A stretch of 27,316 nt of DNA from a virus (lineage: Duplodnaviria > Heunggongvirae > Uroviricota > Caudoviricetes). The notes below the pieces were generated by a model. That model was not told the origin of the DNA. It saw only the letters and a program-made list of their open reading frames with translations, and did no database searches. The stretch's first letter is position 1. Each line of letters opens with the position of its first letter. The stretch lies in the IMG/VR virus record IMGVR_UViG_2728369187_000003; one strand, written 5' to 3'. Made by a program: the position numbers and the translations under genes. This document shows positions 9,596 through 23,119 of this stretch, one piece after another.

Positions 9596-10519
9596 ATGCC
9601 ATCACTAGATACTATAGTTTTAAACCTCCTAAGAGGGGCTGTTCCTGAGAATGCTGATGAACTTTGTCAGACCTGGAAGAGCTATAAACACACGGTCGAA
9701 CTTGCAGAGGATGCCCTAGGATCAACAATGAATGCAACTAGTAGGCGCATCGAGTTTGACTCTAAAACTATCGATTTCTTTTGGTTATTTGGGTTTAGTA
9801 CATGGTTTACGATTGAGACATATGCTCCAGCCCTAGTAAAAGCATGCTTACTAGGTGTGACGTTAGAGTCGGCTTTAGAATCTGATGAAGAACGTGGCCA
9901 ATTTGAACTAAATTATAAACAGCATTTGTATATTTCAAAGTCTTTGCTAAGCGTTGCGAATACGGCTGATATTACATGGCCTCAAGATATTCCTTTTCCA
10001 ACAGATGCGCGAGATAGTTTGAATAATATTCAAGAACAGGCTGTTTTTGATCTAGTAGCATTAGCATTGTCTTTTTCTATACTTCATGAGTATAAACATG
10101 TTCAAGCACGAGCCGAAGAAAAAAAACATGAAAATCCCCAAGAGAAGGATGAAGAAGAGTTAGCCTGTGACTCTTGGGCTCGTGAATATATAACTAAGGG
10201 CGTCGGAGTCTATGCTAAAAAAGCTGGGCATACCTATGAAGAGGTCATGCAAAAACGAGCAATGGGGATAACACTTGCCGCCTTTACTATACACGCTTTA
10301 ACATCAGATATCGATAAATGGGGTGGTGAAGAGTATCCATCTATAGCAGTAAGGATTCAAACAATGATAGGGGGGTACAACCTTTCAGATTCATCGCCCT
10401 TCTGGTGTTTTACAGCTTGTCTTCTCATCGCGGTGATGAGACAGGAAAACCGTAAGCTTGATTATAAAGCTACAACATATAAAGAGTTTGTTACTAGGCT
10501 CCTTTCGGAATTACACTAA
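9596..10519 (+). CDS. HExxH zinc-metallopeptidase-like protein (307 aa), island gene B
   Basis: TAAGGAG ribosome-binding site 8 nt upstream; HEYKH motif at residues 164-168 within FSILHEYKHVQ; a hairpin terminator follows. Confidence 0.6.
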   Translation: MPSLDTIVLNLLRGAVPENADELCQTWKSYKHTVELAEDALGSTMNATSRRIEFDSKTIDFFWLFGFSTWFTIETYAPALVKACLLGVTLESALESDEERGQFELNYKQHLYISKSLLSVANTADITWPQDIPFPTDARDSLNNIQEQAVFDLVALALSFSILHEYKHVQARAEEKKHENPQEKDEEELACDSWAREYITKGVGVYAKKAGHTYEEVMQKRAMGITLAAFTIHALTSDIDKWGGEEYPSIAVRIQTMIGGYNLSDSSPFWCFTACLLIAVMRQENRKLDYKATTYKEFVTRLLSELH

Positions 10520-10980: not shown

Positions 10981-12360
10981 TCAGAAGTCCATCAGGTCAT
11001 CGAATTTCTGAGGTGGCTCTTGTTTTCGAACACTATCTCCCTGATGAATCTCCGTCTCACTTGTTTGGTATTTTACACCAGTAATTTTATGATAAGTCAT
11101 ACTGTTGGTTTTCAACAGTAGTGCATCATTTTTGTCATGCGAGGATGAAAATGAACCCATATGTCTCGGTTTTATTTGTTCCTCAACTATTAACTGAATT
11201 TCCGGAACAAAAGCATACTGGTCATCTTCGATGTGTTCATACATCTCAACATTATATCGGCGAGATTTATCTGCGGCATGCCTGACGCCGGAAGACTTAT
11301 TAAACAGAACGACATTATATCCTATCTCAGCATCCTCACCGTTGGCATCTACCTGGGTAGATTTAAAGCTGACACCATCAAGCTTAAATTTATTTCGGTC
11401 ACCTAGGTAATCGGCAACCACTTGGGTGATGAGGTAATCACTGTCCTGCCTTTTTCCAAAAGTAGGAAGCGTCAACTTACGGGAAAGCGTACTGAAAAAA
11501 ATCGCGCGCTCACTGGTTTTGCGAGTCTGAGGATCAAATTTACTACCTGAGCCGAAACTAATCGAGTCAAGGGCAGAAATGTCCAGCACTTTTAGCTCGC
11601 GTAACGGTACAAAACAGGCCGTTACTACAATACTGCCGACGGGCGGCCTTACTTCAGCAATTGCCAAATTCACTGAGGTTGCACCGTAAAATACTGAAAT
11701 CCCCTGTGCGTTCATACGGCCCGACCGAGCCAAAGTTGATGGGGGAGGTCCAAAATTTTTCTCGGGCTGCTCCAAGGCTTGCTTTACTTCCTCTTGGTCC
11801 TCAAAGACCCTTGCACGAAAAAGATGAACCTCATCAGTCAGAGTTTTTATCGGTGAATTACTGTCTCTGTTTTTTAGTTTATCGATATCACTGAAAAGTG
11901 AATCCAGGAAATCATTAACTTCACGGTTAAAATATCGTGTTTCTTTCATAAGGGAGTCAGTGGCTTTACTCCAGGTATGCGCAAGCTCTCCGCTATAGTG
12001 ATTTATGTGCCGATAAACAAACCCATCATTATACCGGATGTAGTCATAATCGTTATGCGGATTATATTCATCACAAAGAAATTCATAAATATCTTCAGCT
12101 ACGTCCCATTCGACGCCCAGTTCTCCGCAGATGACATCCTGCGCGCTATCACCGCGCCCGGAATCATAGATATCCTCATACATATCATAGTAGTACTCAA
12201 AAACCTCATTCATCATCTTGAGAATATATTTGAGGTGGATGTTTTTACGCTTCCTTTTGCAGTAAGAGCAAATCCGAACATTATTTCCGGTTTTTATTAT
12301 ATGCTGCATGACATATTTATCGTTCACGCATTTATGACAAATATACTTATCTTTCCACAT
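10981..12360 (-). CDS. Zinc-ribbon plus RES-like domain protein (459 aa), island gene C
   Basis: N-terminal CHKC...CSYC zinc-ribbon-like motif; central SGRMNAQGISVFYGATSVNLAIAEV fits the R-x9-Y-x10-E spacing I recall for RES-domain NAD-targeting toxins; convergent with gene B. Confidence 0.55.
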   Translation of the reverse strand: MWKDKYICHKCVNDKYVMQHIIKTGNNVRICSYCKRKRKNIHLKYILKMMNEVFEYYYDMYEDIYDSGRGDSAQDVICGELGVEWDVAEDIYEFLCDEYNPHNDYDYIRYNDGFVYRHINHYSGELAHTWSKATDSLMKETRYFNREVNDFLDSLFSDIDKLKNRDSNSPIKTLTDEVHLFRARVFEDQEEVKQALEQPEKNFGPPPSTLARSGRMNAQGISVFYGATSVNLAIAEVRPPVGSIVVTACFVPLRELKVLDISALDSISFGSGSKFDPQTRKTSERAIFFSTLSRKLTLPTFGKRQDSDYLITQVVADYLGDRNKFKLDGVSFKSTQVDANGEDAEIGYNVVLFNKSSGVRHAADKSRRYNVEMYEHIEDDQYAFVPEIQLIVEEQIKPRHMGSFSSSHDKNDALLLKTNSMTYHKITGVKYQTSETEIHQGDSVRKQEPPQKFDDLMDF

Positions 12361-12427: not shown

Positions 12428-12706
12428 AAAAACCCCCTCCTCACCTCAATGCTTTCAGTGTAAAAATAATTAGTAATACGCTGTACTGGTAATAATTATG
12501 AACTTCCTCTTCTCGCTCAAAGCGGACTAGAAAGTTAGCTTGCGTCGGACTTGGCGTATTTAAAGAAGTGCTGGTGGTGACTGGTTGTTGTGTTCCATTT
12601 CTACAGAACAAAATCACAGAAACTATACCCAATAGTTGTATTGAATCACTGACGAGACAGCCTCATATTTATCAGGACTGGTGTACGTCCAATACAGGAG
12701 GTTGTG

Positions 12707-12796
12707 GTGCTGGTTCTCAAATGTGCGCTGGCTATTGCTGCTGTAATGGCAATTTATTGCCTTGCTGTTGTTCTTATGGATCGCCTTTCTGATTGA
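12707..12796 (+). CDS. Candidate 29-aa hydrophobic peptide
   Basis: AGGAGG 5 nt upstream of a GTG start; MLVLKCALAIAAVMAIYCLAVVLMDRLSD*; a single predicted transmembrane helix with charged ends. Confidence 0.35.
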   Translation: MLVLKCALAIAAVMAIYCLAVVLMDRLSD

Positions 12797-12897
12797 TTTT
12801 ATATTGGCGAGGTGACGTGAGTTAAGTAGAATTGCTGCGGGTGCTTGAGGCTATCTGCCTCAGGCATGAACACCAAAGGCAGATAGAGAAAAGCCCC

Positions 12898-14773
12898 AGT
12901 TAACATTACGCGTCCTGCAAGACGCTTAACATTAATCTGAGGCCAATTTCATGCTAGACACATGTAGGTTAGCCTCTTACGTGCCGAAAGGCAAGGAGAA
13001 GCAGGCTAGTGTTAACACCAAGCTGTAATGTCCCCTTTGAACCATTCTAAAATGTCCCCAGACAATTCTCTGGGGGATTTTTCATGATCAAAGAGACTGT
13101 TACGATGAGTCATAAGGAACTCCACCGACTTCAGATTATTCAGGAGTCAATTAATCGACATATTACTCAGGAACAAGCTGCGGCACGCATTGGCATTTCT
13201 ATTCGGCAGGTTAAACGTCTGGTGCAACGGTATAGAAATGAAGGGCCTTCTGGTCTGGTTTCCCACCGACGTGGAAAGCGTCCTAATAATTCCTTTTCTA
13301 CTGAATTCAGAGCAACAGTAATTTCACTCCTCAAAGGCCGTTACGCTGATTTTGGACCTACGTTTGCGTGCGAAAAATTGCGCGAGATACACGGTTTATC
13401 TTTATCCGTTGAAACTCTCAGAAAGTGGATGATAGAAGAGGGGTTATGGCGTGAACGCCGTCGTAAAATTGCCCGTATATATCAACGCCGCATGCGACGA
13501 CCATCTTACGGTGAACTGATCCAGATTGATGGCTCACCTCATGACTGGTTTGAAAATCGAGGCCCCAGATGTACACTGATCGTTTTCATTGATGATGCCA
13601 CCAGTGCGTTGATGGCGTTGCGTTTTGTGCCTGCTGAAACAACCCGGGCTTACATGGAAACCCTCCGGGGTTACCTTAATGATCATGGCGTACCGCTCGC
13701 TCTCTACTCTGATAGACACAGTATATTCAGGGTAAATAACCCAGAGCGGGAAGGTGAGCTGACCCAGTTCACTCGTGCGATAAAGACACTGGGCATCGAG
13801 CCAATCCATGCCAACAGCCCGCAGGCAAAAGGGCGGGTAGAGCGCGCCAATCAGACACTACAGGACAGGCTGGTCAAAGAAATGCGGCTTCAGAATATCA
13901 GTGATATTGAAACAGCAAATGCATGGTTGCCGACCTTTATTGAAGCCTATAACAACCGGTTCGCTACGTCGCCTCGTACTACTGATAATGCTCATCTTGA
14001 TGAGCACCATTCTGAAGAGGAACTGGGTTATATCTTCAGCCTACAGGCGAAGCGCGTTCTGTCTAAAAATCTCACTTTCCAGTACAAAAGCAGTGCGTTT
14101 CAGGTACGCAGTGAGGGCCGGGGATATCGACTTAGGCATTCGGTTGTTACTGTATGCGAGAACTTTGACGGTGAAATTAACGTTCTGTATGACGGGAAAG
14201 CGCTGGGCTGGGAAAAGTATGTTGATGGCCCGGAGCCTATACCACTGGATGATGAAAAGAGTGTCCATGAACGAGTGGATAATGCCCGTATTGATTTACG
14301 CTCAAAATACTATGTTAAACCTAAAGCTGACCATCCCTGGCTTACGCGCCGAACGCAAAGTCATCAGCAAGTTAAGCCCCCGAAGTTACCTAAAAAGAAG
14401 CCTGATCCCGATAAAAAAGATTGAAACCAAGATCGATTCGGTTGAGTGCATATCCATTCATAGGGTAGATTCTTAAGTCGCGTTTCTGGTGTTCATTTTC
14501 GGGTGGTTTGTTACTTGTTTTACCGGGGATATGCCAGAAACGCGCTGAGTCAGTCTGGGCGGTGCGCGTAATGAGGCGTTATGGTAAATAGCCTATGCTA
14601 ATGTCCGCTAAGAGCAAGAAGCGGAAGTTGGCAGTTTTGTGGACTGTCCCCACAAAAGTGACTACAGAAATAGTTGCAATTCATAATTGATCATGGGTTG
14701 TCAGTTAAACTCGTGGCGATTTAAATAGACTAATTGGGAGTGCGTCCATTACTTATATCTTGTAATGTTAACT
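12898..14773 (+). mobile_element. Insertion sequence carrying a DDE transposase (ends uncertain)
   Basis: The transposase gene is flanked by a 12-bp inverted match, AGTTAACATTAC at 12898-12909 and its reverse complement at 14762-14773; hairpin-forming inverted repeats sit inside both arms; no direct repeats found. Confidence 0.4.
13084..14424 (+). CDS. DDE transposase with N-terminal HTH (IS481/ISNCY-like, family not resolved)
   Basis: 446-aa ORF; N-terminal HTH-like region (ITQEQAAARIGISIRQVKRLV), central integrase-core-like region (IQIDGSPHDW...LIVFIDDATS...) and a basic C-terminal tail. Confidence 0.75.
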   Translation: MIKETVTMSHKELHRLQIIQESINRHITQEQAAARIGISIRQVKRLVQRYRNEGPSGLVSHRRGKRPNNSFSTEFRATVISLLKGRYADFGPTFACEKLREIHGLSLSVETLRKWMIEEGLWRERRRKIARIYQRRMRRPSYGELIQIDGSPHDWFENRGPRCTLIVFIDDATSALMALRFVPAETTRAYMETLRGYLNDHGVPLALYSDRHSIFRVNNPEREGELTQFTRAIKTLGIEPIHANSPQAKGRVERANQTLQDRLVKEMRLQNISDIETANAWLPTFIEAYNNRFATSPRTTDNAHLDEHHSEEELGYIFSLQAKRVLSKNLTFQYKSSAFQVRSEGRGYRLRHSVVTVCENFDGEINVLYDGKALGWEKYVDGPEPIPLDDEKSVHERVDNARIDLRSKYYVKPKADHPWLTRRTQSHQQVKPPKLPKKKPDPDKKD

Positions 14774-14820
14774 ATCAGAAATGATACAAAGATAATATGT
14801 CTTTAAAGAAAAGGCTGATG

Positions 14821-14846
14821 GCGAAAAGTGGCCCGATGAGGGCCAC
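14821..14846 (-). terminator. Rho-independent terminator downstream of flxA
   Basis: GTGGCCC-GATGA-GGGCCAC hairpin followed on the minus strand by TTTTCGCC. Confidence 0.55.
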
Positions 14847-14860
14847 AATACGGCTGTCAC

Positions 14861-15193
14861 TTAGACGTAAATATCAATGGTGCCAGCGGTATTTGTATCG
14901 TCTTTTTTCTCTTCTTTTTTATCAGGCTGAACTGTCGCGTCTTCATTCTTTTTCTCTGCCTGCTGCCTTAACAACTGCTCCAGTTGAGCCCAGAGGCTTT
15001 CAATTTGCTTCTGTACCAATGCAGCCATTTCTTTTTTCTGCTGTGTCGTCATCCCCTCTTCCGATGAGATTTTCACAAGCTTTTCAGTCAGCACCTGAAT
15101 TTGTCTTGTGATTTTGGCTATTTCTGATGTTCCTTCCGGGGCGGAGTTGTTTGAAATAACGGTTGAGGTATTTCCCTGAATTGTGACAGACAT
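14861..15193 (-). CDS. flxA: FlxA-like protein (110 aa)
   Basis: 110-aa ORF; AAGGAG ribosome-binding site; preceded by a near-consensus sigma-28 promoter; matches the Qin flxA position and length from memory. Confidence 0.7.
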   Translation of the reverse strand: MSVTIQGNTSTVISNNSAPEGTSEIAKITRQIQVLTEKLVKISSEEGMTTQQKKEMAALVQKQIESLWAQLEQLLRQQAEKKNEDATVQPDKKEEKKDDTNTAGTIDIYV

Positions 15194-15216
15194 AGATTTC
15201 TCCTTTTAAAAAAGCA

Positions 15217-15243
15217 CTATCGGCATGCACAAAAAAATCTTTA
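15217..15243 (-). promoter_or_regulatory. Sigma-28 (FliA) type promoter for flxA
   Basis: Minus strand reads TAAAGATT-N-GCCGATAG with a 15-nt spacer between TAAA and GCCGATA, against the consensus TAAA-N15-GCCGATAA. Confidence 0.6.
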
Positions 15244-15395
15244 ATCGTATTTCTTGTGTCATTAATTGTTTGATGTTCAGATTGTTTTCCTCGCGGGCTG
15301 GCGCGCCTCAGAAAGTAAAGCTTGTTGACAGGGGTAAACGTTCGGCAATAATTTTCTGCCGCATGCGGGTGTTGCATAAAACGTGTTACGTTCCT

Positions 15396-15701
15396 TTATC
15401 GACAGGTCAGGTCACCGCTCACCCGCCGACGAGAAAGCAACACTGACATGCTAAAGCAAAAAATAGATGAATAAGTTGAGTTGTGCATATGTAGCCTGAC
15501 CGTCACAAAGTATATGGTGTCTGTACCAGTAAGATGATGGCCGGACTCTTTAAAAACGAGCTGACCTGCACAATACAGGATGGACTTAGCAATGGCTGCT
15601 CCTGGCAGAAAGCGGACAGTGATCACCGTTCTTACGACTACTTTCTGACTTCCTTCGTGACTTGCCCTAAGCATGTTGTAGTGCGATACTTGTAATGACA
15701 T
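15396..15701 (-). CDS. YdfV-like hypothetical ORF (101 aa)
   Basis: Length and position between relB and flxA match the K-12 ydfV annotation as I recall it; no other support. Confidence 0.3.
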   Translation of the reverse strand: MSLQVSHYNMLRASHEGSQKVVVRTVITVRFLPGAAIAKSILYCAGQLVFKESGHHLTGTDTIYFVTVRLHMHNSTYSSIFCFSMSVLLSRRRVSGDLTCR

Positions 15702-15714
15702 TTGTAATTACAAG
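15662..15714 (+). promoter_or_regulatory. relBE promoter and operator
   Basis: TTGCCC-N17-GATACT followed by the palindromic CTTGTAATGACATTTGTAATTACAAG, overlapping the -10 element and just upstream of the relB ribosome-binding site. Confidence 0.6.
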
Positions 15715-15725
15715 AGGTGTAAGAC

Positions 15726-15965
15726 ATGGGTAGCATTAACCTGCGTATTGACGATGAACTTAAAGCGCGTTCTTACGCCGCGCTTGAAAAAATGGGTGTA
15801 ACTCCTTCTGAAGCGCTTCGTCTCATGCTCGAGTATATCGCTGACAATGAACGCTTGCCGTTCAAACAGACACTCCTGAGTGATGAAGATGCTGAACTTG
15901 TGGAGATAGTGAAAGAACGGCTTCGTAATCCTAAGCCAGTACGTGTGACGCTGGATGAACTCTGA
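15726..15965 (+). CDS. relB: RelB antitoxin
   Basis: 79 aa MGSINLRIDDELKARSYAALEKMGVTPSEALRLMLEYIADNERLPFKQ..., near-identical to E. coli RelB from memory; stop overlaps the relE start. Confidence 0.95.
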   Translation: MGSINLRIDDELKARSYAALEKMGVTPSEALRLMLEYIADNERLPFKQTLLSDEDAELVEIVKERLRNPKPVRVTLDEL

Positions 15966-16252
15966 TGGCGTATTTTCTGGATTTTGACGAGCGGGCACTA
16001 AAGGAATGGCGAAAGCTGGGCTCGACGGTACGTGAACAGTTGAAAAAGAAGCTGGTTGAAGTACTTGAGTCACCCCGGATTGAAGCAAACAAGCTCCGTG
16101 GTATGCCTGATTGTTACAAGATTAAGCTCCGGTCTTCAGGCTATCGCCTTGTATACCAGGTTATAGACGAGAAAGTTGTCGTTTTCGTGATTTCTGTTGG
16201 GAAAAGAGAACGCTCGGAAGTATATAGCGAGGCGGTCAAACGCATTCTCTGA
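15965..16252 (+). CDS. relE: RelE mRNA interferase toxin
   Basis: 95 aa MAYFLDFDERALKEWRKLGSTVREQLKKKLVEVLESPRIEANKLRGMPDCYKIKLRSSGYRLVYQVIDEKVVVFVISVGKRE..., matching RelE from memory. Confidence 0.95.
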   Translation: MAYFLDFDERALKEWRKLGSTVREQLKKKLVEVLESPRIEANKLRGMPDCYKIKLRSSGYRLVYQVIDEKVVVFVISVGKRERSEVYSEAVKRIL

Positions 16253-16323
16253 ACCAAAGCATGACATCTCTGTTTCGCACCGAAGGTGACACTTCTGCTT
16301 TGCGTTGACAGGAGAAGCAGGCT

Positions 16324-16473
16324 ATGAAGCAGCAAAAGGCGATGTTAATCGCCCTGATCGTCATCTGTTNNNNNNNNNNNNNNNNNNNNNNNNNNNNNNN
16401 NNNNNNNNNNNNNNNNNNNNNNNNNNNNNNNNNNNNNNNNNNNNNNNNNNNNNNNNNNNNNNNNNNNNNNNNN
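16324..16473 (+). CDS. hokD: Hok-family toxin (hokD/relF-like), interrupted by an N-run
   Basis: Begins MKQQKAMLIALIVIC, the Hok N-terminus, then runs into the N-run; the true 3' end is not visible and the 66-aa track ORF is an artifact of the gap. Confidence 0.7.
16370..16473. other. Run of 104 N (assembly gap or masked sequence)
   Basis: Directly visible; lies inside the hok-like gene. Confidence 1.
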
Positions 16474-19633: not shown

Positions 19634-19933
19634 AAAAATTCCTTAATACTGATAACTTGGCGCACTATACACACGTTCCTGAAGAAAGCTATAGTTTTTT
19701 GATGGGGTTGAAGATGGCTGGATGTCTAAAATAAACATTGCTTCATATGTTCAACTATGCGTTAATGATTGCGTCGGTTTGAAGAACAGACGATATACGA
19801 AGTAGTTTACTAAAGCAGTTCTCATTTCAGGTGTTATTCACTTATTCCTTCTTTGAGTCTCTCCAATTAAGTACGAAGTCGTTTCTGTTATGCAAACCAT
19901 TTATGCCGAAAGGCTCAAGTTAAGGAATGTAGA

Positions 19934-20149
19934 ATGTCAAATAAAATGACTGGTTTAGTAAAATGGTTTAACGCTGATAAAGGTTTCGGCTTTATTTCTC
20001 CTGTTGATGGTAGTAAAGATGTGTTTGTGCATTTTTCTGCGATTCAGAATGATAATTATCGAACCTTATTTGAAGGTCAAAAGGTTACCTTCTCTATAGA
20101 GAGTGGTGCTAAAGGTCCTGCAGCAGCAAATGTCATCATTACTGATTAA
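19934..20149 (+). CDS. cspB: Cold-shock protein, CspB-like
   Basis: 71 aa [67 protein letters not shown]... Confidence 0.85.
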
Positions 20150-20430
20150 AATTCATCGCTCGTCTGTATACGATAACGAAGAAGGCTGATGCCTGAGTAG
20201 AGATACGGACAGAGTAGTGAATATTGGATCTCTTTAATAAAAAGTAAGGAGGTCCAATACATGAAACAATGGCCAGCATATTTGGCAAAATCTTAATCAG
20301 GAAAAGTATGCTAACCATTGTGGTGAAGTGCAGGTTTGCTGCATGAATAGTTTCACAGCAGAAGCTAACTGCTGGCATCGCAAAACAAAGTGCGTAAGTG
20401 GATGACTCCCACAAAAAGCACCACAATCTC

Positions 20431-22456: not shown

Positions 22457-22818
22457 GGTAATATTAAATCGGAACATTTACATCGCGGAATGTAAAATTT
22501 AAATAAAAAGGACTCTTCCATGAGCCAAAATTCCTGAAATCTTAAGGGTAAGATAAAAGGTCTTAATCAGAATGACACGTTTTATTAATAAATAAAGCTA
22601 TTCTTTCATTGCTGTGTTTTTCTTTACAAAAGTAATCCTTGCTATGGGTGGTTAATCATGCGTTAATGGTGTTCTGGTTTGTTACAAATTTATCTGAAGC
22701 AGTCATTGTTATAATTTTATTATTTGTACCTCTTGAGATTTCCTTGTTGGTTTTTCTCTCTGATATTTTTTTTCGGACCATTCTGCCCAAGGGCTAATTT
22801 CTTCAAAAGGTAATAATT

Positions 22819-23031
22819 ATGTCTAACAAAATGACTGGTTTAGTGAAATGGTTTAACCCTGAAAAAGGTTTTGGTTTCATCACGCCGAAAGATGGCAGCA
22901 AAGATGTGTTTGTCCATTTCTCAGCAATTCAGAGCAACGATTTCAAAACATTAACTGAGAATCAGGAAGTTGAATTTGGTATTGAGAACGGACCTAAAGG
23001 TCCTGCCGCTGTTCATGTAGTGGCGCTTTGA
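22819..23031 (+). CDS. cspI: Cold-shock protein, CspI-like
   Basis: 70 aa [70 protein letters not shown]. Confidence 0.85.
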
Positions 23032-23119
23032 GGTAGACAATATTACAAACCATATTCACTTTAGATGCCCGTGTTGTCATGGTTCCCAGTATAGAACATC
23101 ATCTTTTGATGTTTCTGAC

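Follow-up and report, generated by a model that had tools for sequence, protein, structure and literature searches.

The question raised by this locus is which of two overlapping reading frames immediately upstream of hokD encodes a protein, and whether that protein is a type I toxin. The DNA analyzed is a stretch of 27,316 nucleotides (hereafter, the window), a Qin-like lambdoid prophage of Escherichia coli. The initial annotation proposed a 29-aa hydrophobic peptide translated from a GTG behind an AGGAGG site, compared it with type I toxins or small membrane regulators, and regarded the longer, Cys-rich open reading frame (ORF) of the gene track as its frame shadow. The features on which the argument depends are listed below, with the basis of each.

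9596-10519: Lit-type protease gene (PADLOC Lit, E=1.3e-18)
10981-12360, minus strand: 459-aa RES-domain protein with a weak HEPN/RES N-terminal domain
12568..12792, plus strand: 74-aa Cys-rich ORF, a frame shadow and not a gene (substitutions, interruptions, no Shine-Dalgarno site)
12641..12646, plus strand: -35-like hexamer TTGAAT of the small gene's own putative promoter (fixed 17-nt spacing, edge of homology)
12664..12669, plus strand: -10 hexamer CATATT (conservation in upstream segments)
12696..12701, plus strand: Shine-Dalgarno (SD) site AGGAGG (window sequence and conservation in relatives)
12707..12796, plus strand: 29-codon gene with GTG start and TGA stop, for a predicted single-pass membrane peptide (substitutions in relatives and published BL21 reads)
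12797..12812, plus strand: short conserved 3′ flank (TTGATTTTATATTGGC...), common to both downstream contexts
12804..12832, plus strand: hokD promoter TTGGCG-17-TAGAAT (present in 91/103 unique sequences)
12839..13005, plus strand: leader of the hokD mRNA; the other strand bears the Sok antisense gene (full-length match to Rfam RF01794 'sok', 112.8 bits)

The window sequence bore out the proposed layout. AGGAGG at 12696-12701 is separated by 5 nt (TTGTG) from the GTG at 12707, which opens 29 codons translated as MLVLKCALAIAAVMAIYCLAVVLMDRLSD and closed by TGA at 12794-12796. The ORF list gives a 30-aa version opened by an in-frame GTG at 12704. Because the codon at 12704 is GTC, GCC or ATC in most relatives, GTG 12707 was taken as the conserved start. 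The peptide consists of a 19-residue core (CALAIAAVMAIYCLAVVLM) with a mean Kyte-Doolittle hydropathy of 2.7 and of polar ends, Lys5 standing before the core and a DRLSD tail after it, in agreement with the single hydrophobic helix with charged ends that had been described. The window contains six copies of the hexamer AGGAGG, with 8.2 expected; the motif alone is not beyond chance, and it is the relatives and the published ribosome profiling that lift the frame above chance. In the relatives, the SD site reads GGAGG, GGGGG or GGAGA with the same spacing kept, and its diversity is 0.068 versus 0.25 in the adjoining spacer.

Two collections of related prophage loci were used. The first, gathered by searching for a degenerate pattern placed within the ORF, comprises 113 full-length segments, 93 of them unique, and the window; such a collection is biased for coding tests, and it served only for the counts of indels and stops and for promoter conservation. 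The second was gathered with a pattern in the leader, blind to the ORF (107 segments, 43 unique, plus the window), and is the basis of the substitution test. The ORF-anchored set contained no indel in the 29-codon frame, and the stop was kept in all but one sequence. In the leader-anchored set, the start was GTG in 44 of 44 unique sequences, never ATG, and the frame was intact in 43 of them. The relatives are all close (at least 80% identity, Escherichia and Shigella only), and over this limited divergence, with kinship not corrected for, 20 of the 42 substitution events in the small frame were synonymous (S=20/N=22; 48%), compared with 28% expected (binomial p=0.005). The replacements in this set were all conservative (V/I, A/V/T, M/V/L/I, D/E/N, R/H, S/T), and none created a stop. 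Counted in the same way, the Cys-rich frame in the overlap gave S=9/N=33 (21% synonymous versus 25% expected, p=0.76), and the third frame of the same DNA gave 12 synonymous events out of 42 and six stops.

Codon-position diversity within the 29-codon gene was 0.050, 0.036 and 0.129, the third position being about 3-fold higher. Residues K5, C6, Y17 and C18 are nearly invariant, K5T and C6Y having been observed once each, and several Ala positions swap with Val or Thr. The upstream sequence carries indels and frame changes and differs completely among the leader types described below. Gene-caller products in public assemblies use differing upstream frames as start, and all converge on the same 29 residues. 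Conservation of either frame, which had been named as a way to decide between them, thus gives a selection signal in the 29-codon frame and none in the Cys-rich one, and this pattern shows that the 29-codon frame is the coding one, a real conserved mini-gene. As a separate observation, rare variants in the short public contigs P0009 and P0161 have TGG in place of the TGA and extend the frame through the hokD -35 region as ...DRLSDWFHIGEVTVVK, and one viral locus has TGC at the stop.

Ribosome profiling, another of the checks suggested at the outset, was available from a published catalogue. The BL21(DE3) copy (VLVLKCTLAIVAVMAIYCLVIVLMDHLSD; NC_012971.2 1591437-1591524, minus strand) appears in Table S4 of Fesenko et al. 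2024 (PMC11188072) as cluster Escherichia_98807 of the Entero67K set of 67,297 clusters, with 13 retapamulin initiation-site reads, 38 footprint reads and a dN/dS of 0.46. Our own rough estimate of dN/dS, about 0.4, agrees with the published one. The authors of the catalogue caution that many such translation signals may be spurious (PMC11188072). In BL21(DE3) (locus L199, NC_012971.2 ~1591437-1591560), a deletion has placed a truncated DUF977 gene directly against the small gene's leader, and the CDS annotated for DUF977 extends some 40 nt into the small ORF, read in a different frame. The same deletion removed the gene's own promoter, and for this reason the BL21 reads say nothing on native expression. 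The SD-GTG site is used in cells; the reads from BL21 are few and come from a copy without the native promoter.

Inspection of the upstream segments suggests how the gene is transcribed. The hexamer CATATT was present in 39 of 39 unique upstream segments gathered blind to it (shifted by 1 nt through an indel in one), and it stands 37 nt before the GTG in 64 of 66 unique sequences. At 17 nt from this -10, 60 of the 66 carry TTGAAT, TTGAAG, TTGATT or TTGCTG, and the spacer between the hexamers occurs in 16 different versions of fixed length. Diversity is 0.0 in the -10, versus 0.235 in the spacer and 0.248 just after the -10. We interpret TTGAAT-17 nt-CATATT as the probable footprint of a working sigma-70 promoter. 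Because the -10 lies 37 nt before the GTG, transcription would start near 12676 and give a leader of about 30 nt.

The relatives comprise at least five leader types (A-E), the upstream sequences of which are unrelated, and their common homology starts at the TTGAAT-like hexamer. Downstream, the context with hokD and one with a convergent tehB-like gene have the 3′ flank in common as far as TGGC, some 16 nt beyond the stop, and then diverge. Since homology begins at the -35 and the 3′ conservation ends about 16 nt past the stop, the functional unit is estimated at about 170 bp (12641-12812).

Several observations were made on the sequences in front of this unit. An upstream block at about 12503-12637, found only with leader type A, is conserved in many prophages and has a sharp left edge, which in other strains is a 7-bp inverted repeat, GTCCGCT...AGCGGAC. 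It carries indels and is therefore not coding, and with a fold z=0.35 it is not structured. In leader types C and D (L123, L018, L068), a different small hydrophobic ORF, starting MSWPEVFTTVGIAMAVALVVYSI... in our translation, lies directly upstream of the promoter; if this ORF is a gene, these leader types would carry two tiny membrane-peptide genes in tandem.

Of 5426 complete E. coli genomes, 2649 contain the block at 12520-12835, with nearly every copy chromosomal. Among 40 sampled rows it was annotated in one, as the 29-aa 'hypothetical protein' WP_000960667.1 of strain ET826 (PGAP), and a few GenBank records name the peptide 'membrane protein'. When one genome per species was scanned, the gene turned up only in E. 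albertii, E. ruysiae and Shigella flexneri and in three contigs from metagenome-assembled genomes, which are probably Escherichia-derived; it was not found in the Qin region of K-12. The protein searches used a 68-aa gene-caller extension of the peptide, and the other searches used DNA patterns. HMMER against 1.84 billion representative proteins gave nine matches, all with at least 86% identity, and no family of Pfam, NCBIfam, PHROGs or PADLOC covers the peptide. In the literature searched by peptide string, accession and topic, we found no characterization, with the catalogue entry of PMC11188072 as the sole exception, and no description of the promoter, the context, the relation to hokD or the function. 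Escherichia_98807 and WP_000960667.1 belong to the same gene family as the small gene but are table or database entries only, with no name, promoter, context, hokD relation or function attached. What was already known is therefore a hypothetical protein and one catalogue line, and the general kind, small hydrophobic peptides on mobile elements, is a familiar one.

The nearest neighbor is hokD. Its -35 begins 8 nt past the stop codon of the small gene, and its mRNA leader begins 43 nt downstream of the small ORF. The alignment to RF01794 indicates that the model describes the hok mRNA leader and ends at the hok AUG, and the annotated hokD of other strains starts exactly where the model ends. 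In 159 of 181 loci, the distance from the small gene to this leader is constant. The other 22 have a convergent tehB-like gene with its terminator in place of hokD, the junction falling within the hokD -35, and many prophages have hokD with the small gene deleted down to its last seven codons. Because either occurs without the other, the small gene and hokD are separable neighbors and not one system. In other strains, DUF4145, QueH or unrelated genes stand in place of the Lit and RES cargo, so that the small gene and hokD may border a hotspot of cargo exchange.

In the window itself, an insert of 3,301 bp (13009-16309) stands between the hokD leader and the hokD coding sequence, whose ATG is at 16324; the insert is flanked by a perfect 15-nt direct repeat, AGGAGAAGCAGGCTA, at 12994-13008 and 16310-16324. 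The insert carries a transposase-like gene (13084-14424; HTH and rve_3), flxA, a ydfV-like region, relB (15726-15965) and relE (15965-16252). This is the relB-relE-hokD arrangement of K-12, here with an orphaned hok leader kept 3.3 kb away, beside which the Sok gene is presumably still in place. Most of the hokD coding sequence is hidden by a run of N (16370-16473). At two further places in the window the cspA thermoregulator RNA is matched over its full length (19773-20165, 158.8 bits; 22673-23058, 112.8 bits), which marks prophage copies of cold-shock genes.

The reading that we prefer, with a probability of roughly 0.55, is that the small gene is a self-contained prophage accessory gene encoding a dosage-limited single-pass inner-membrane peptide with no dedicated antisense RNA, a peptide whose topology, membrane action and role as an exclusion or defense factor or as a modulator we infer. 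In Escherichia prophages of the Qin/lambdoid type, the unit would be made of TTGAAT-17 nt-CATATT, a leader of about 30 nt, GGAGG, 5 nt, GTG and 29 codons. Low production is suggested by the modest promoter, by a start codon that is GTG throughout and never ATG, and by the small number of ribosome reads in BL21. The peptide would insert into the inner membrane with its N-terminus inside, as expected from the positive-inside rule, and its C-terminus outside. It may act within the membrane through a conserved helix face (K5, C6, Y17, C18); the near-invariance of these residues beside Ala positions that swap may indicate that a specific face of the helix, and not its overall hydrophobicity, is what matters. 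It would then be a dosage-limited accessory 'moron' peptide, placed beside hokD in a slot with defense cargo (Lit and the RES-domain protein). Judged from its form and from the neighbors Lit, RES and hokD, its role may be in exclusion, defense or the interplay of prophage and host membrane.

Two groups of known genes are comparable with an accessory gene of this kind. Like lambdoid morons and small membrane superinfection-exclusion factors, it is an extra gene between the replication and nin/Q modules with a promoter footprint of its own, its presence varies among similar prophages (there are loci with the gene deleted or with another neighbor), and it adjoins defense cargo (Lit, RES, hokD); unlike morons, it has no terminator that we could find between its stop and the hokD leader. 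Small membrane proteins of up to 50 aa are recognized by a conserved frame, an initiation site of their own and evidence of translation, all of which were found for the 29-codon gene. It resembles the enterobacterial inner-membrane proteins AcrZ, MgtS and CydX (at most 50 aa) in size, in the single transmembrane helix, in its own translation initiation region, in purifying selection and in detection by initiation-site ribosome profiling. These proteins differ in being encoded in the core genome and having known partner proteins, whereas the small gene is prophage cargo confined to Escherichia and Shigella, with no known partner.

The initial annotation had pointed to type I toxins, and we consider it unlikely that the small gene is the toxin of a canonical type I pair, in which a small antisense RNA from the opposite strand or from a divergent neighbor blocks translation and loss of the RNA kills or arrests the cell. 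The size, the hydrophobicity and the charged C-terminal end match such toxins, the prophage location is next to another type I system, hokD/Sok, and the start that is never ATG suggests dosage sensitivity. Type I toxins are hydrophobic peptides of less than 60 aa with a transmembrane helix, and the peptide, with 29 aa and a core hydropathy of 2.7, is of this form. Like those of E. coli (Hok/Gef, TisB, ZorO, ShoB, DinQ, Ibs, Ldr), it has about 30 aa with one hydrophobic helix and polar ends, and its gene is unannotated, lies on a mobile element and adjoins a bona fide hok/sok locus. Unlike them, it shares no sequence similarity with the group, and no antisense RNA gene was detectable at the small gene. 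The mRNAs of hok, tisB, zorO and shoB are known for long folded leaders (see also Fozo et al. 2010, PMC2887945). In contrast to such a leader, which hides the ribosome-binding site, the leader predicted here is short, about 30 nt, and the mRNA is not unusually structured (single-sequence fold z=-0.69) and has a weak consensus structure.

On the opposite strand, the only promoter-like site at the gene is TTAACT-18-TAAAAT, from 12825 to 12796, which could start an antisense RNA at about 12789. However, at the critical -11 position of this site, 29 of 66 unique sequences have A and 36 have G, and its -35 is lost in the loci of the tehB context. The minus strand has no conserved or stable structure: the consensus fold is -0.4 kcal/mol, that is, essentially no structure, and the single sequence folds worse than shuffles (z=+1.02). 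No Rfam family was found on the small-gene block at E<=1, and hokD/Sok is the sole antisense-RNA system in the vicinity. A search of the window for complementary sequence, as expected for an antisense RNA acting in trans, gave nothing beyond a 14-mer at the stop of a ydfK-like gene, which we took as chance. The conserved unit of about 170 bp has no room for a separate sRNA gene. The search of the opposite strand therefore yielded neither a conserved promoter nor a structured antisense RNA. The evidence points to the absence of a dedicated antisense RNA, although one made in cis from a weak or non-sigma-70 promoter could go unseen in a sequence comparison, and membership among the type I toxins, which that partner defines, is not demonstrated. 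The gene appears toxin-like in form and not part of a canonical type I toxin-antitoxin pair. The other description offered at the outset, a small membrane regulator, may still apply.

Three other candidates for regulation were set aside. An 8-nt direct repeat (GTGCTGGT; 12568 and 12707) was discounted for its shortness and because some relatives have it deleted. A divergent sRNA in the type-A block, read from a minus-strand GTGATT-16-TATAGT (-10 at 12627-12622; 79 of 103 unique sequences), was rejected: the block is absent in types B-E and its z is 0.35. A hairpin sequestering the SD with the coding region was predicted by alifold; it is weak, and its covariation is unconvincing.

Translated background is also improbable as an explanation, more so than a type I pair: the ORF would serve no selected function and would have stayed open only through the youth of a prophage block that recombines as a whole. 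The sequences are indeed closely related, the ribosome reads are low (13 at the initiation site, in a catalogue whose authors warn of spurious signals), and natural deletions of the gene exist. Against this, the synonymous excess is seen in the 29-codon frame only and is absent from the other two frames, the -10, SD and GTG are conserved amid variable flanks, and five unrelated upstream contexts keep the same unit.

Two more speculative forms of a toxin were considered, and we regard them as very unlikely: a second membrane toxin paired with hokD under a shared Sok, or a class of membrane toxin that has no antitoxin and is harmless only through low dosage. As to the former, in the absence of a terminator a transcript of the small gene would enter the hokD leader and carry the Sok target, so that Sok could be a shared brake on two toxins. 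Such a two-toxin cassette, if it is true, would be present in about half of E. coli genomes.

There is little to recommend the idea of the small gene as a hok paralogue in decay or as a piece of the hokD locus, mok-like or regulatory, that is conserved because of hokD and not for a product of its own. The constant 43-nt distance to the hokD leader in the 159 loci and the 8 nt between the stop and the hokD -35 would fit it, as would a loose likeness to Hok, seen by eye (K...TM...R-L-S/C-D/E). However, the block has no significant DNA similarity to the hokD locus, and the peptide, with or without its read-through residues, aligns with HokD no better than shuffles do (p=0.22-0.34); on these DNA and protein comparisons the idea was dropped. 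A search for HokD homologues returned only near-identical HokD proteins and hence no useful profile. The Pfam Hok/Gef family (PF01848) does not match the peptide, which thus falls outside Hok/Gef by family profile and by sequence similarity. The Rfam hok-leader model does not match the block: its only match is 12839-13005, and the hok-type leader with a Sok target and a mok coupling frame is missing from the small gene. The occurrence of the gene without hokD in 22 of the 181 loci, and of hokD without the gene, tells against a common locus, and the selection at the codon level argues for a protein product and against a hok relic. The two overlapping frames do resemble mok/hok, in that the longer starts upstream and ends near the stop of the shorter; unlike in mok/hok, the longer frame here is not conserved and is often broken, which leaves no mok-like coupling frame.

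Finally, next to no chance is left for the 74-aa Cys-rich ORF being the real gene and the 29-codon frame being incidental: this ORF is the longer one, is the one in the track and is open in 23 of 44 unique relatives, but stops or frameshifts interrupt it in the other 21, it shows no purifying selection, its N-terminal two thirds are sequence missing from leader types B-E, its GTG is directly abutted by AAAGAA and has no usable SD site, as had been stated, it has no match in Pfam, NCBIfam or PHROGs, and a collection of 15 billion proteins contains no identical one. The frame-specific substitution pattern refutes it, and the description of this ORF as a frame shadow held up.

As this case shows, the longer of two overlapping ORFs in a gene track may be nothing but a frame shadow. 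The gene that casts it here, present in about half of complete E. coli genomes, is almost never called by standard annotation. The small gene lies directly against the hokD promoter, in a slot that gathers defense and exclusion cargo, and deleting or cloning 'hokD' with its upstream sequence may unknowingly remove or add a second membrane peptide. If the peptide is not membrane-active, the unit of about 170 bp with its promoter, SD site and 29 codons would still be a clean, bounded test case for conserved bacterial microproteins. Should it be active in the membrane, or modulate a membrane protein of the host or of a phage, it would be a new component of prophage-encoded exclusion and defense.
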